Of a stretch of 38,747 nucleotides of DNA, positions 12,429 through 38,487 are shown in pieces. Location: the IMG/VR virus record IMGVR_UViG_3300000929_000001. One strand, written 5' to 3'. The translations under genes and the position numbers were made by a program. The notes beneath the pieces were generated by a model. It was not told the origin of the DNA. It searched no databases and saw only the letters and a program-made list of their open reading frames with translations. Each line of letters starts with the position of its first letter. Within the stretch, counting starts at the first letter, position 1. This DNA comes from a virus.

Positions 12429-13273
12429 CAGGAACTGAAGGTCTTTGGGTTTATGCTGCTGTATCCGCTGCCGCCGCAGTCGCTGGGGCTGGCGTCTCGA
12501 TCTATTCTGCCAACGAGCAGTCTCGCGCCCAAGCCGCAATGGCCGAGTACAACCGCATGGCTGCGGAGCAGAATGCCTCATGGCAGCGCCTCGCCGGGGA
12601 ACGTGCCGCGCAGGCCGAACAATTTAACGCACAGATAGCCGGATTCAACGCAGACGCGCAGGGTCAGCAGGCGCAGATGAACCGGCAGATGCTCGGTCAG
12701 CAAAGCGATCAACTGCGAGCGCAGGCGACCGCGCAAGACGCGCAAGCCCGCGACCAAGCAGGCCGCATCCGCGCCGAGAAGGATCGCATCCTCGGTCTCC
12801 AACGCAGCCAGTTCGCCGCAGGCGGCGTCACCCCGGAAGGCTCGCCTCTTGCTGTTTTGGCTGATACCGCCAACCTCTACGAAATGCAGGTCAACGACAC
12901 GAAGCTCCTCGCCAATCTGGAGACCAACAAGAAACGCCGCGAGGCCGGACTCAACGACATCATCGGCGACTTCAATTTCAACGCAGATACCTTCGCCTCG
13001 GTGATGAGTTCCAAGGCCGCAAAGTTGAGCTTGGACGATGCGAAGTTCGCCGAGGAGGCCGCAGGCGCAGGCTACAGAATCAATCTTCGCCAAGCCGACA
13101 TCGAACAACGCGCAGGTATGTCCCAATCGCGTGGCACTCTGATGGCAGGCTACGGGTCGGCACTCAGCAACATATCCCAAGCCGGGTACTACGGATCGCA
13201 GGCCGCAGGCGGGTATTCGTCCGGTGGTGGAAACGGCAAAGGTAAAGACACATCAAAAGGGACAGCCAAATAA
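12425..13273 (+). CDS. Internal virion / ejection protein (gp14-like position)
   Basis: 282 aa with an N-terminal hydrophobic helix (WVYAAVSAAAAVAGAGVSIY), then a Q/A-rich coiled coil. ATGA overlap. Confidence 0.5.
   Translation: MTGTEGLWVYAAVSAAAAVAGAGVSIYSANEQSRAQAAMAEYNRMAAEQNASWQRLAGERAAQAEQFNAQIAGFNADAQGQQAQMNRQMLGQQSDQLRAQATAQDAQARDQAGRIRAEKDRILGLQRSQFAAGGVTPEGSPLAVLADTANLYEMQVNDTKLLANLETNKKRREAGLNDIIGDFNFNADTFASVMSSKAAKLSLDDAKFAEEAAGAGYRINLRQADIEQRAGMSQSRGTLMAGYGSALSNISQAGYYGSQAAGGYSSGGGNGKGKDTSKGTAK
12854..12867 (+). repeat. Motif copy (variant GTTTTGGCTGATAC)
   Basis: Inside ORF 12425, read as V-L-A-D-T. Confidence 0.6.
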
Positions 13274-13275
13274 CC

Positions 13276-15312
13276 ATGCCATCCATCCGACTCGCCGATA
13301 TTCCAAATGCAGGCCCGCAAGGTGTCGCTCCCGACAGCGGCATCATCGCGCCTCGCGTAGCCCAACTCGGCGGGTCCGCAGCCCTTGACCCCAACGCCAT
13401 GCGCGGGGTCGCCAAGGACATGCAGCTGGAGAAGTACAACCTCAACGCATTTGCGGGCGAGGCCATCGGTCTTGGCAAGATCGGAGACGCCATGAGCGAT
13501 GTGGCTACCCTCGGCATCCGCTTCGCGACGAAGATGGCCGATGCGAAGGACGATGCCGACTTTGAGAAGGGACGCAACATCCTCGCCGCTGCCGCGCAGC
13601 AGCAGGAGAACGACCACCAGAATCTCTCGCCCGAAGAGTGGGGAAGCAACTTTGACAAACTCAACAAGGGGGTCCAAACAGATATGGAAAAGCTGGGCTT
13701 CTCCAAGTCTGGCCGAGCCAAGTTTGAGGCGTACCGTTCAAACTGGGCGAATCAAACAGCACTCAAAATCACTGGCATGGCCAACAAGGAAAAGATCGAG
13801 GGATACAAGCAGGATGCCAAGATCGGAGTCGAACGCGAACTTGCGCTAGGCAACGAGCAGGGAGCCTTTGAGATCGTCAACAAGTTCAGAACGAACGGGA
13901 CGCTCGGCGAGCGAGATGCCAAAGATTTAGAGGGTCATATAATAGTTCGCTCAATCAACATCGCCGAGCAACGCCAGACCGATGTGGTAACTGCGGATAC
14001 TTTAGCAGATTGGACCAAGGCCAAGGCCAACCTCGATCAATACAAGGTCGAGAAGGTGGATGAGAAAACCCCGGACGCTAGAATCGATGGACCCTACGGA
14101 GAGATGCGTGCGACCAAGGTGAAGCGACTCATTGCCGAGGTGGACCGCCAAGGTAAATATGCCGAGGCGACCAACTACAACACGCTCGCCCAAGCCATCG
14201 ACAGCAACACGCCGGTGCGACTCAAGAACGGCAGCGAGATTCTCATTACGGATGAAAGCATGCTCGGCCAAGCTACTGCCGACATCAAGGTCACCGATCC
14301 TTCCGCACTCAAGCGCCTTCGCCTGCTTGTCTCCGACAATGTCCCATACCGCCCGGACGCTGTCTCTGCCGTGAATGCGCGTCTCGCAAACTACGATCCC
14401 TCGACCGATCCGAAGATGACCGAGTTCAACGCGATCTCAAATGATATCGTCTCCAATGTTCCAAAAAACCTACGTAGCGTCATGAACAACGATCTCACCT
14501 CGGCATGGACGAAATTCAGCAAGGATGGGACACTCAACCCAAAGACCAAGTGGCAGGGGGAAATGATCTCGCAGATCAATGAACTCGGCAAAAATGGCGT
14601 CCTCGGTGACATGGGAACTGAGAAAGATAGCAATGATCTCTTCACGGGCAAAATCAAAGACCAGACAAAATACGACACTTACTGGAACAAGGTTTACAAT
14701 CTTCAAGGCGAGATGCGTGACTGGTTTTCTGATCCTGCTAACAAAGGCAAATCTCCCGAAGATGCCCGCGCTTATCTGAATGGTCGGATCAGAGGCCCAG
14801 TCCAAGATGCGGCCATGAAAGATGGGGCGCGGCTCAAGCCAGAATCAATGAGGTTTTCAGTGCCGGTCGGCACAGGCGGACTCTATAATGCTCCAGTTCC
14901 AAGCCCAACTCCAACAAATCCAACTGACCTCATTAAAAAGAGTCGTGAGATTAAAGCCGAAGGCAAAGTTACGAGCTACAATTTCAAAGGCGATGCCTAC
15001 TCGGATTCTAATTCGCGTGCCGGTATCGGGGCATGGAACAACAAGCTCACCGAAACATCGCTCGCCATCTCACCCGATATCGAAAGCAAATTCAAAGCCG
15101 CAGGAATTGGAAAGGGCGACCCCGTGGAACTCACTCTTGCGGATGGGTCCACCGTCATTCGCAACTGGGATGACCGCACCATGCAGGACAAGCAAGCCAT
15201 CAGCAAATATGGCAAACCTCTCACTGGTCGCTTCGACTTCCATTCTCCGGGAGGAAAACAAAAGAATGATGGCATGGCCGTCCTGTCCTTCCGTAAAGCA
15301 CCCAACGCTTAA
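13276..15312 (+). CDS. Internal virion protein with C-terminal 3D/RlpA-like (double-psi beta-barrel) putative peptidoglycan-lytic domain
   Basis: 678 aa. The C-terminus reads VTSYNFKGDAYSDSNSRAGIGAWNNKLTETSLAISPDIESKF...GDPVELTLADGSTVIRNWDDRT...GRFDFHSPGG. It sits in the gp15-like position. Confidence 0.45.
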   Translation: MPSIRLADIPNAGPQGVAPDSGIIAPRVAQLGGSAALDPNAMRGVAKDMQLEKYNLNAFAGEAIGLGKIGDAMSDVATLGIRFATKMADAKDDADFEKGRNILAAAAQQQENDHQNLSPEEWGSNFDKLNKGVQTDMEKLGFSKSGRAKFEAYRSNWANQTALKITGMANKEKIEGYKQDAKIGVERELALGNEQGAFEIVNKFRTNGTLGERDAKDLEGHIIVRSINIAEQRQTDVVTADTLADWTKAKANLDQYKVEKVDEKTPDARIDGPYGEMRATKVKRLIAEVDRQGKYAEATNYNTLAQAIDSNTPVRLKNGSEILITDESMLGQATADIKVTDPSALKRLRLLVSDNVPYRPDAVSAVNARLANYDPSTDPKMTEFNAISNDIVSNVPKNLRSVMNNDLTSAWTKFSKDGTLNPKTKWQGEMISQINELGKNGVLGDMGTEKDSNDLFTGKIKDQTKYDTYWNKVYNLQGEMRDWFSDPANKGKSPEDARAYLNGRIRGPVQDAAMKDGARLKPESMRFSVPVGTGGLYNAPVPSPTPTNPTDLIKKSREIKAEGKVTSYNFKGDAYSDSNSRAGIGAWNNKLTETSLAISPDIESKFKAAGIGKGDPVELTLADGSTVIRNWDDRTMQDKQAISKYGKPLTGRFDFHSPGGKQKNDGMAVLSFRKAPNA

Positions 15313-15318
15313 TTTTAC

Positions 15319-38317: not shown

Positions 38318-38332
38318 CATTTTTGAAAATAT

Positions 38333-38346
38333 GTTTTGACTGATAC
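38333..38346 (+). repeat. Motif copy GTTTTGACTGATAC
   Basis: Intergenic, 16 nt after the tRNA-Met. Confidence 0.8.
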
Positions 38347-38473
38347 TAAATCGGGCTGAAACGTAAGACCGTCAGAGCAGACACCTCCTTGTTGAGCCTG
38401 CTCCCTAATTACCCGCCGCCGCTGACCCCACACGGGACACTCGGAGAGCGAAGGGAGCAGAACAAATCCATCA

Positions 38474-38487
38474 GTTTCGACTGATAC
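38474..38487 (+). repeat. Motif copy GTTTCGACTGATAC
   Basis: Intergenic, 26 nt before the capsid ATG. Locally ATCAGT-TTCG-ACTGAT can form a hairpin. Confidence 0.8.

Follow-up and report, generated by a model that had tools for sequence, protein, structure and literature searches.

The window (the whole stretch of 38,747 nt that was analysed) is the circular genome of a temperate podovirus with T7/BPP-1-like structural genes, whose host probably belongs to the Verrucomicrobiota. An exact-match scan for GTTTYGRCTGATAC returned ten matches on the + strand, at 12854, 18082, 18997, 20878, 23816, 32800, 35221, 37361, 38333 and 38474, and an eleventh copy, with one mismatch (ATTTTGACTGATAC), lies inverted on the - strand at 34735-34748; the first-pass annotation of this DNA had listed the same ten and one. 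The copies, taken as 15-mers, and the features around them are as follows.

710..745, + strand, terminator-like hairpin TGGCAGAC-9-GTCTGCCA with T-run, 3' of the capsid gene, read directly
12854..12868, + strand, motif copy GTTTTGGCTGATACC, in frame (VLADT) within the internal-virion-protein gene 12425-13273
18082..18096, + strand, motif copy GTTTTGGCTGATACC, in frame within the gene for the 2828-aa polyvalent protein; left joint of a 915-nt module
18997..19011, + strand, motif copy GTTTCGACTGATACC, in frame; left border of the ART and kinase cassette
20878..20892, + strand, motif copy GTTTCGACTGATACC, in frame; right border of the ART and kinase cassette
23816..23830, + strand, motif copy GTTTTGACTGATACC, adjoining ATG 23831 of the holin-like gene
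32786..32796, no strand assigned, palindrome TCTTGTCAAGA, just 5' of the terS copy and kept across clades
32800..32814, + strand, motif copy GTTTCGACTGATACC, in the last codons of the RusA-like ORF, 8 nt 5' of the terS ATG
34734..34748, - strand, inverted motif copy ATTTTGACTGATACC, the only inverted one, inside ORF 34500-34895
35221..35235, + strand, motif copy filling the gap from the stop codon of ORF 34754-35221 to the portal ATG 35238
37361..37375, + strand, motif copy 4 nt 5' of the scaffold gene ATG 37380
38247..38329, + strand, tRNA-Met followed by a T-run; in distant relatives this position is held by a motif-adjoining terminator hairpin
38333..38364, + strand, putative capsid promoter with motif GTTTTGACTGATACT: TTGACT 38336-38341, 17-bp spacer, -10-like AAACGT 38359-38364
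38371..38513, + strand, conserved capsid leader GTCAGAGCAGACACCTCC..., possibly structured, which holds the next motif copy
38474..38488, + strand, capsid-proximal motif copy GTTTCGACTGATACC, 25 nt 5' of the capsid ATG 38514

The repeated 15-base motif, in 11 copies, is real: not a single match to GTTTYGRCTGATAC was obtained across 100 dinucleotide-preserving shuffles of the window, which bears out the earlier statement that it is not expected by chance. Beyond the 11 copies the window contains no sequence with two or fewer mismatches to the 15-mer, and when up to four mismatches were allowed on both strands, 22 matches were observed (the 11 real copies included) against a shuffle mean of 7.6, those with three or four mismatches being at background level, so that the sites are all-or-none. 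The motif itself has neither an SD-like sequence nor secondary structure, its internal variants are transitions only (T/C, A/G, C/T), and base 15 is C in 10/11 copies, the copy at 38333 having T. Positions 1-12800 and 24000-32800 of the window are free of copies, as had been noted.

Wholly non-coding copies make up 4/11 of the set, compared with 4.8% expected (P = 1.3e-3). The gaps to start codons given in the first-pass annotation, counted from the end of the 14-mer, are correct, these being 1 nt for the holin-like gene (ATG 23831), 9 nt for terS (32823), 3 nt for portal (35238), 5 nt for scaffold (37380) and 26 nt for capsid (38514); only four of the 11 copies lie 0-9 nt from a start codon, and five are situated within genes. 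The portal copy shares one base with the upstream stop codon and, among relatives, remains invariant while its distance from the ATG ranges over 0-3 nt. The five coding copies on the + strand all stand in phase 0 (ORF frames 12425, 15319 and 32392) and the inverted copy has the same codon partition as ORF 34500, so the claimed common triplet phase holds; it is partly forced, since the TGA of CTGATAC always closes one frame and TTTTGAC closes a second. The accompanying claim that TTTTGAC is restricted to non-coding and inverted copies is true of the window but not of its relatives, whose coding copies have this form.

The same 15-mer was found in >100 IMG/VR contigs, on one strand only per contig and conserved at the same sites, with flanks 82-89% identical, while control 14-mers gave only single matches per contig. 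When homologous sites were located through their flanks, the motif was kept, coding copies included, in 51/51 (the capsid-proximal copy, always in its C variant), 58/61 (the inverted copy, flanks 85% identical) and 53/59 (the scaffold copy), and the copy at 12854 was identical in 7/7 homologous sequences with flanks 89% identical. Each more distant lineage has its own version, GTTTTGACTGACACC in L210, GTCTTGACTGACTCC in L208 and CTATTGACTGAAACC in L211/L454, which is uniform within its genome and stands at the same sites. The core that is constant across versions, TTGACTGA..CC, contains the consensus -35 hexamer. As the whole 15-18 bp, c(A/T)GTTTYGACTGATACC(A/G), is constant within a genome and shifts in step between clades, we infer that a sequence-specific protein binds it. 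In 83% of site classes a purine comes directly after the motif.

This family-wide conservation and the co-varying versions, as well as the role in recombination described further below, go beyond what the first-pass annotation contained, and the relatives also qualify its statement that the motif is confined to the late half of the genome: this applies to the window, whereas relatives have copies before an SSB-like gene and other replication-region genes. Distant clades with only 2-5 copies retain these at promoter positions. The capsid-proximal copy is absent from L122, L208, L210, L211 and L456, and in L122 the portal copy has decayed and the scaffold copy is reduced to a remnant.

TTGACT is invariant in all motif-bearing lineages. 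At the capsid copy (38333) a TA-starting hexamer follows it after 16-18 bp in 12/13 spacer variants, the window's own variant having AAACGT at 17 bp, so that this copy possesses both the -35 hexamer and the -10 at 16-18 bp of a sigma-70-type promoter (TTGACA, 16-18 bp, TATAAT), with -10 hexamers that mostly lack T at -7. In the aligned variants the conserved capsid leader begins 7 nt past the TAnnnn hexamer, and in the window the capsid transcript is predicted to start at G 38371. The copy sits directly behind terminators in relatives (canonical hairpins with T-runs adjoin the motif in L208 and L210) or, in the window, behind the T-run of the tRNA, and in L455, where the motif is absent, its place is occupied by a plain TTGACG-17-TAAAGC. 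The terminator-like hairpin at 710..745, missed by the terminator scan because of its 9-nt loop, closes the capsid transcription unit.

The packaging-operon (terS) copy, which in the window stands at the head of the packaging/late operon (32800), has the same -35/-10 geometry in two lineages, L208 and L454, with the start again 7 nt past the hexamer. There the genes upstream of it are on the other strand, and the gap contains no promoter-like element other than TTGACT-18-TATTCC or TTGACT-18-TTTAAT, which puts the start codon near +1; the terS mRNA is predicted to be leaderless in these two relatives. To this extent the leaderless messages proposed in the first-pass annotation receive support, as does the proposed late promoter in the sense of a DNA-level link to late expression with a -35 core and with promoter anatomy at least at the capsid copy and, among the relatives, at that of terS. 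Wherever the anatomy is readable, however, the start is predicted about 23 nt past the motif and not at the adjoining ATG; for the portal and scaffold copies this distance would place it within the gene.

Most of the other copies lack a -10 at 16-18 bp, and the sigma-70 arrangement was not found for the other nine. Over 46 site classes the -10 score profile has only a small rise at 15-18 bp, no site class has a good -10 hexamer except those behind the tRNA or a terminator, and most have no conserved downstream element. Lacking a -10, most other copies are not ordinary promoters, yet they are conserved; nor do ordinary sigma-70-type promoters conserve nine further bases around the -35 or recur, lacking a -10, as exact 15-mers within genes. 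Passable to moderate -10-like hexamers (AAnAAT, GAAAAT) are nevertheless present 16-17 bp from the portal and terS copies, and some of the copies interpreted below as roadblocks may be weak promoters. The capsid-proximal copy (38474), which lies upstream of the SD-like AAGGA, is followed by leaders of 24-40 nt carrying the SD, and in relatives the copies at the tail and SSB genes are followed by A/C-rich leaders of a similar kind. The observation that the copies abutting start codons leave no room for a Shine-Dalgarno sequence is accurate but less odd than it seemed, as most genes of the window have A/C-rich leaders without an SD-like sequence at the normal distance.

We favour, tentatively and with somewhat less than even confidence, an explanation by control of late transcription, in which the motif would be a double-stranded-DNA signal for the host sigma-70-type RNA polymerase and the copies without a -10 would be repressor roadblocks. 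The core TTGACT would serve as -35 box for the host polymerase; one copy per lineage, directly behind a terminator (here the tRNA-Met and T-run), would form the capsid promoter with its TAnnnn -10 at 16-18 bp, and a second promoter copy would head the packaging/late operon. The protein presumed to bind the motif, either phage- or host-encoded, would act as a repressor, occluding the -35 at the promoters and, at copies without a -10, forming an orientation-dependent roadblock. Such roadblocks, placed in the very short spaces 5' of the portal, scaffold, holin-like and capsid genes as well as in frame within the internal-virion and polyvalent genes, would keep late, lysis and toxin-domain genes silent. 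Binding of a late regulator, one of several possibilities raised in the first-pass annotation, is in our view what best fits the copies that lack a -10, with weak extra promoters at these same copies as the main rival. The sequence does not reveal whether the protein represses or activates; a -35 so close to consensus fits a promoter occluded by a repressor better than one that depends on an activator.

The proposed mode of action is that of the L5 repressor with its operators and stoperators. The L5 consensus along the transcript, which we take to be CTTGACAKCCACC, contains TTGACA and matches TTGACTGAyACC at 9-10 of 12-13 positions. Copies inside genes are unusual for stoperators, and that half of the copies here are found within genes counts against a stoperator reading, just as the lack of any copy in the early/immunity region counts against a repressor. 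The sites bound by gp71 in L5 and other Cluster A mycobacteriophages are asymmetric 13-mers that point in the direction of transcription and occur at promoters and in small spaces between genes (PMC9283540, PMC6550527). The likeness extends to asymmetric 13-15 bp sites in more than ten copies per temperate genome, to one orientation relative to transcription, to a location at promoters and in short stop-start gaps, and to a consensus that differs between related phages (PMC9283540, PMC6550527), and by this analogy the copies may block elongation as L5 stoperators do. The window differs from L5 in having no site at an early promoter or the immunity region (none in 24000-32800), in its probable host, Verrucomicrobiota and not Mycobacterium, and in having no gp71-like monomeric two-domain repressor, none being detected by Pfam and PHROGs scans or by a PDB sequence search of ORF 26822-27358, which probably comprises only ~100 aa; nor was any other candidate protein for binding the motif found in the window. 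The immunity region, comprising the RHH protein 26567-26749 and its neighbours, differs between relatives in which the motif remains identical, so that, unlike in L5, the motif is not the operator of the immunity repressor.

A possible but less probable alternative is that all copies are late or middle promoters, read by an activator dedicated to them, by a sigma-like factor or by an unrecognised polymerase; the late region would then be a multi-promoter unit as in T7, and starts would lie either ~23 nt past the motif or at its end, the latter giving leaderless or short-leader mRNAs. Promoter anatomy at the capsid and terS copies, the orientation of copies with the genes and ahead of genes needed in quantity, the purine bias after the motif, the leaders following the capsid-proximal copy and the tail and SSB copies of relatives, and the capsid -10 hexamers, whose frequent lack of T at -7 makes a helper factor plausible, are all consistent with it. 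T7 promoters likewise have an all-or-none pattern, and the window resembles T7-like phages in its many identical copies (15-23 bp in that group) set in gene orientation in small intergenic gaps or gene ends, in a roughly 39-kb podovirus with T7-like structural genes. Unlike these phages, it has no single-subunit polymerase gene: PHROGs/Pfam scans of the ORFs tested and PDB sequence searches of the 678-aa and 2828-aa proteins revealed no phage RNA polymerase, and no sigma factor gene was found among the window's tested ORFs. The motif moreover carries a host-type -35, with a -10 at 16-18 bp where readable, most site classes lack a conserved downstream element, and near-consensus -35 hexamers are atypical of activator-dependent promoters. 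Starts ~23 nt past the motif would put those of portal and scaffold within the adjoining gene, while starts at the motif end leave the fixed TA hexamer of the capsid copy unexplained; the phage-specific polymerase promoter starting at the motif end and abutting the ATG, as first suggested, is thus disfavoured.

Quite improbable, and more so than the linker role considered below, is an RNA-level element near start codons resembling SAS of Cluster K mycobacteriophages, that is, an mRNA binding site tuning translation or a processing site. Four copies do lie 0-9 nt from start codons without an SD, the motif is strand-specific, transitions would be tolerable in wobble pairing with a guide, and SAS are phenomenologically close, being 13-bp asymmetric repeats with one orientation, one inverted site and a distribution over one half of the genome, located 3-7 bp 5' of start codons and kept across subclusters before unrelated genes (PMC3203893). 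SAS nevertheless have a Shine-Dalgarno core, AGGAG, and occupy the non-structural half, whereas the motif here has no SD, has a -35 hexamer and lies in the structural/lysis part, also in genes and behind terminators; virtually all SAS copies stand a few nt from a start codon with a ribosome-binding core, compared with four of 11 copies here. Distances to the ATG range from 0 to ~170 nt, the copy behind the terminator occupies a place that calls for a promoter and not an mRNA element, and apart from the lone inverted copy, with which the C variants do not fully pair, no complementary RNA was found. L122 translates its portal, scaffold and capsid genes without these copies, and since single copies are dispensable and the motif is unstructured, the earlier suggestion of an RNA processing site is unlikely.

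Least probable of all are site-specific nick sites in virion DNA, also proposed at first, which are known from T5, phiKMV-like and tf/LUZ24-like phages, with CGACxxxxxCCTACTCCGG in the phiKMV group and TACTRTGMC in the tf/LUZ24 group (PMC3517423, PMC11780129). A short, all-or-none, strand-biased motif in ~10-14 copies, conserved in position among relatives, is the nick-motif signature of tf and Rembedalsseter (PMC3517423, PMC11780129), and the structural module here is T7-like. Known nick motifs, however, follow coding density (88% in genes, PMC11780129), are not linked to promoter elements and belong to virulent phages, whereas the copies of this temperate phage are enriched outside genes and their distribution depends on gene boundaries. 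Nicking does not explain why, in several clades, copies located behind terminators should have TTGACT spaced 16-18 bp from a TA hexamer; the window yielded no candidate nickase, and the inverted copy contrasts with tf, whose sites are all on one strand (PMC3517423).

The anatomy of the sites shows that motif copies double as recombination joints and, in the gene for the polyvalent protein, do so in frame. In L201-L203 the left flank of copy 18082 is joined directly to the right flank of copy 18997, the module between them being missing and the junction coinciding with a single motif copy; copies 18997 and 20878 enclose the ART and kinase domains; the lysis genes 3' of copy 23816 differ among relatives with the junction at the motif; and around each copy the flank classes of the left side combine freely with those of the right. 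T7-like promoter copies also act as recombination joints. Under the preferred explanation of late-transcription control, exchange of genes and in-frame protein modules between identical 15-mers would be a side effect. That it is the primary role, the motif being a linker for RecT/exonuclease exchange of gene cassettes and in-frame effector modules, appears improbable. The free reassortment, the L201-L203 junction, the bounded ART and kinase domains, the single reading phase of all coding copies, the variable lysis cassettes and the RecT-like and exonuclease genes encoded by the phage all agree with such a role, but it does not account for the -35/-10 geometry and terminator adjacency, the strand bias or the retention of copies at promoter positions in distant clades; selection for evolvability alone is weak, and any conserved repeat becomes a joint as a by-product.

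One inverted copy is present in every motif-bearing lineage examined; neither this copy nor the invariable C variant 5' of the capsid gene is accounted for by the preferred explanation. Close to the holin-like copy (23816) a TTGACA hexamer is found at 23802-23807, and the palindrome TCTTGTCAAGA beside the terS copy is a candidate site for a second regulator, or else a -35-like TTGTCA.

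The pattern GTTTYGRCTGATAC has ten exact matches in the whole window, all on the + strand, and none in 100 shuffles, which reproduces the ten positions listed in the first-pass annotation; the inverted copy that it had placed at 34735 lies at 34735-34748 (ATTTTGACTGATAC) and carries a single mismatch. The copies are as follows:

12854, + strand, coding copy
18082, + strand, coding copy
18997, + strand, coding copy
20878, + strand, coding copy
23816, + strand, holin-like copy
32800, + strand, terS copy
34735-34748, inverted copy
35221, + strand, portal copy
37361, + strand, scaffold copy
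38333, + strand, capsid copy, behind tRNA-Met
38474, + strand, capsid-proximal copy

Scanning the window with the 15-mer at 3-4 mismatches added matches at background level only, so that motif sites are all-or-none. Of the 11 copies, four lie entirely outside coding sequence, where 4.8% would be expected (P = 1.3e-3), a fifth shares one base with a stop codon, and the same scan found no copy in the early region. The motif-to-ATG gaps, which cluster at 0-4 nt and 8-9 nt, and the common codon phase of the coding copies had both been read correctly. The further remark that no room is left for a Shine-Dalgarno sequence is true at four genes but is not exceptional, since the leaders of most genes here are A/C-rich and have no Shine-Dalgarno sequence at normal distance; the host may use Shine-Dalgarno-independent initiation widely.

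The contig is circular, with 55% G+C and a 23-nt terminal overlap (1-23 = 38725-38747) by which the assembly is closed, and the capsid gene spans its ends, from 38514 to 695. The structural genes comprise terS, terL, a T7-type portal, scaffold, capsid, tail tubular and internal virion proteins, accompanied by a 2828-aa polyvalent protein with ADP-ribosyltransferase and kinase domains, a holin-like gene and a CHAP lysin, while the early region encodes an integrase, a RecT-like protein, an exonuclease, replication genes and a RusA-like gene. Comparison of 6.7 kb of the window with cultured phages by blastn gave no match, tblastn of the portal reached at best 34% identity, in HTVC010P-type pelagiphages, which are the closest cultured relatives, and neither search yielded an annotated relative. 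One close relative sits as a prophage on a 432-kb contig from a genome bin of Terrimicrobiaceae, and Verrucomicrobia bins hold others; the host is probably a member of the Verrucomicrobiota. The long ORFs 26340-26588(-), 24876-25088(-), 24171-24824(-), 36933-37262 and 26822-27358 look spurious or mis-started: the three on the - strand and 36933-37262 are of unusual composition or overlap genuine genes, 36896-37195 is probably the true gene following the portal (Bbp19-like, judged by position), and a start near 27050 is probable for ORF 26822-27358, whose homologues have 102-120 aa.

The first-pass annotation had suggested that related phages be checked for a conserved element, and one exists: the exact 15-mer occurs in more than 100 IMG/VR contigs, often in 2-6 copies and on one strand only per contig, and homologous sites are kept. 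Two clade-variant 14-mers, scanned against IMG/VR as controls, gave single matches per contig only, consistent with chance; a metagenome scan with the 15-mer likewise gave mostly single matches per contig, consistent with chance and uninformative on host promoters. In 78 relatives picked through their portal protein, and thus independently of the motif, the 15-mer 5' of the portal ATG is near-invariant, with a gap to the ATG of 0-3 nt and varying adjoining codons. Where homologous sites were located by their flanks, the motif was kept far better than these flanks, the chance expectation being that about 9% of 15-mers remain unchanged at 85% identity.

Conservation of the motif and of its flanks at homologous sites (copy; motif intact; flank identity)
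Capsid-proximal copy; 51/51; 88%
Inverted copy; 58/61; 85%
Scaffold copy; 53/59; 86%
Coding copy 12854; 7/7; 89%

With class weighting, the sequence logo widens the element to about 18 bp, c(A/T)GTTTYGACTGATACC(A/G)(A/T). In the related contig L122 (portal identity 79%) only remnants are left before the portal and scaffold genes and the capsid-proximal copy is absent; the motif is therefore not required for translation of the portal, scaffold and capsid genes. The version found in the window recurs in L456 (portal identity 76%), relatives at 55-60% portal identity carry other versions in the same places, and no motif was found in L453 and L455.

Versions of the motif in distant relatives (contig; version)
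L210; GTTTTGACTGACACC
L208; GTCTTGACTGACTCC
L211 and L454; CTATTGACTGAAACC

The core TTGACTGA..CC is constant across versions, and positions 1-3 and 11-13 are clade-specific and uniform inside each genome; such uniformity within genomes, combined with divergence from clade to clade, argues for a partner that recognises the site specifically. Each motif-bearing lineage examined has exactly one inverted copy, always intragenic and always the first motif after terS/terL, and at the capsid-proximal copy the C variant is fixed. We consider it probable that the motif is a conserved, co-evolving signal for late transcription, acting at the DNA level and built around a -35 box; the finding itself is real and reaches further than the first-pass annotation could see.

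The -35 box is TTGACT, a 5/6 match to the consensus. At the capsid copy of L208 and L210, the motif directly adjoins a canonical hairpin and T-run terminator that closes the scaffold gene, and the window's clade has tRNA-Met and a T-run at this exact place, so that the terminator stem seems to have been replaced by the tRNA (window 38247-38329; L208 13300-13352; L210 13300-13343). From the motif to the conserved capsid leader (GTCAGAGCAGAC...) the spacer has undergone many replacements, and in 12 of 13 spacer variants a hexamer starting with TA lies 16-18 bp 3' of TTGACT (TAATGT, TACACA, TAGAAC, TAAAAC, TATGGT, TATCAC, TAATCC, TAGGCA, TAAACG, TAACAG, TAAGAA, TATAGG); the window's own hexamer is AAACGT. 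When the variants from the window's clade are aligned, the leader is conserved from 7 nt past the hexamer onward, and L455, which is without the motif, has a plain TTGACG-17-TAAAGC at the place of the capsid promoter. Judged from sequence, the capsid copy is laid out like a host sigma-70-type promoter whose -35 falls within the motif, and the transcript start in the window is predicted at 38371. A conserved hairpin between motif and capsid leader was rejected, a significant fold (z about -6) being found in only one of about 13 spacer variants. The capsid gene is followed by a terminator-like hairpin at 710-745 (TGGCAGAC, 9-nt loop, GTCTGCCA, TTTTTT) and then by 12 kb without a motif copy, so the tail genes probably rely on read-through transcription.

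The start of the packaging operon has a similar arrangement in L208 and L454, where the genes 5' of terS lie on the opposite strand and the promoter must therefore lie in the gap, which holds the motif and, at 18 bp, TATTCC or TTTAAT. In L454 an ATG at the 7th base past the hexamer opens a frame running into the called terS-like gene, and in L208 the terS ATG starts 9 nt past the hexamer; these distances predict leaderless or near-leaderless terS mRNAs. The late promoter with leaderless mRNA proposed in the first-pass annotation thus stands in part: promoter anatomy is present at the capsid copy and at the L208 and L454 terS copies, the latter with (near-)leaderless mRNAs predicted, but most other copies are not ordinary promoters. 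Downstream signals were sought across 46 site classes with a class-weighted logo and a position-weight profile; the -10 score rose only slightly at 15-18 bp and an A-rich stretch appeared, on which grounds a general -10 or other downstream element was rejected. The downstream scan found moderate -10-like hexamers at the portal copy (AAnAAT) and the terS copy (GAAAAT) and none at the scaffold, holin-like, capsid-proximal, inverted and coding copies, and transcription beginning some 23 nt beyond the motif would start within the portal and scaffold genes. Most copies, although conserved, are thus not ordinary promoters, and we regard it as unlikely that every copy is a promoter.

The motif might instead be an extended -10 (TGaTACCAt) served by an upstream -35, since TTGTCA at 32788 and TTGACA at 23802 would then yield leaderless terS and holin mRNAs that fit the 8-9 nt gaps; however, no TA is present in the clade variants GACACC, GACTCC and GAAACC, and this reading does not suit the gaps at the portal and scaffold genes. 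Another rival is a nick site in virion DNA: known nick motifs share the all-or-none, strand-biased pattern (PMC3517423), but their share inside genes follows the coding density (PMC11780129), and they have no tie to promoter spacing. A close match in phenomenology, down to a single inverted site, is to the start-associated sequences of Cluster K mycobacteriophages (PMC3203893), yet an RNA element of that kind is at odds with the dispensability of single copies, the wide spread of motif-to-ATG distances and the position behind terminators. An Rfam scan returned the tRNA and no other known RNA family.

A T7-type promoter would need its own polymerase, and neither an RNA polymerase nor a sigma factor was found among those of the window's ORFs that were scanned against Pfam and PHROGs. 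Because the inverted copy lies next to the packaging start, a Chi-like or uptake-sequence role of the motif was considered; it was rejected because 15 bp far exceeds the length of every known Chi site and because promoter anatomy is present. Comparison by eye with IHF, DnaA-box, sigma-54 and sigma-28 consensus sequences gave no match, and a literature search for the motif sequence returned unrelated primers only.

The simplest single account would be that one protein binds the entire motif, covering the -35 at promoters and standing in the path of the polymerase at the remaining copies. With a -35 so near to consensus, occlusion by a repressor fits better than dependence on an activator, and we tentatively favor such an operator-plus-roadblock mechanism, at slightly less than even chances. 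It resembles that of mycobacteriophage L5, whose repressor sites are asymmetric 13-mers, more than 20 per genome, found at promoters and in short intergenic gaps and oriented with transcription (PMC9283540, PMC6550527). Unlike in L5, the early region of the window has no motif copy, the putative immunity region varies among relatives with an identical motif, and no protein like the L5 repressor gp71 was found among the window's genes. TerS is excluded as the binding protein because L456 has another terS family and the same motif; many motif-carrying relatives have neither the RHH (26567) nor the winged-helix (30004) protein, and the product of ORF 26822 is probably of only about 100 aa, with no function assigned. 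PDB sequence searches with the 678-aa, 2828-aa and 178-aa products found nothing, and no convincing repressor gene was seen among the window's ORFs; the putative regulator may be host-encoded. In L454 a - strand gene block with an Xre-like HTH protein (4742-6163) lies immediately 5' of the late-operon motif copy and is a possible place to look for it.

Motif copies also coincide with recombination joints. At each copy, classes of left flank reassort with classes of right flank, the lysis genes of relatives differ 3' of one and the same copy, and L201-L203 are without the 915-nt segment between copies 18082 and 18997, the two sides being joined in frame precisely at a single motif copy. Copies 18997 and 20878 enclose the ART and kinase domains (aa 1433-1788). 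Stop codons in the other frames account in part for the codon phase that the coding copies share, and this phase also keeps exchanges at the motif in frame. We regard the joints as a by-product of the conserved repeat, which may be exploited for module shuffling. The polyvalent gene (15319-23805) encodes an internal virion protein with ART-PolyVal at aa 1433-1561 and Kinase-PolyVal at aa 1680-1788, and the polyvalent proteins of relatives have other effector domains (PBECR3, LPD3, LPD13) and differing module content. A more far-reaching proposal, which we hold to be improbable as a whole, is that a family of temperate podoviruses of Verrucomicrobiota uses stoperator-like silencing in the late region only, through a protein unrelated to gp71 and separate from the immunity repressor, and that the 15-bp sites were co-opted as in-frame recombination linkers (V-L/S-T/A-D-T) letting toxin/effector modules of a 2,000-2,800-aa injected polyvalent protein swap between phages.

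To our knowledge, nothing is known of gene regulation in phages of Verrucomicrobiota, and we know of no cultured model. The motif, a variant new to known phage regulatory repeats, provides a concrete handle in the form of predicted late promoters, a predicted start and a 15-bp bait for the regulator. Should the copies that have no -10 be roadblocks, silencing from dispersed asymmetric sites arose outside mycobacteriophages and apart from immunity, and would be a general strategy of temperate phages rather than the curiosity of one group. The in-frame copies at the borders of polyvalent modules show how a repeat with a regulatory role can also serve as the joint at which effector domains are shuffled, and in lake metagenomes the motif with its clade variants offers a precise marker by which members of this phage family can be recognised and oriented.

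At the end of the RusA-like gene, on the - strand at 32765-32796, TTGACA (32795-32790), 19 bp and TATAAT (32770-32765) form a near-consensus promoter aimed back at the early genes, which overlaps the palindrome TCTTGTCAAGA, conserved 5' of the terS motif copy in several clades. Directly adjoining the inverted copy, inside ORF 34500-34895, is the near-palindrome CGCAATATATTGTG (34721-34734), perfect (CACAATATATTGTG) in most relatives. The capsid leader (38371-38513, about 140 nt) is conserved even in relatives at 55% portal identity and includes CACCTCCTT, similar to the 16S rRNA 3' end; its CTGCTCCC has two alternative pairing partners, GAGCAG close to the 5' end and GGGAGCAG close to the 3' end, a compensatory change (U-A to C-G) affects one pair in 3 of 11 lineages, and the whole may be a regulatory leader.
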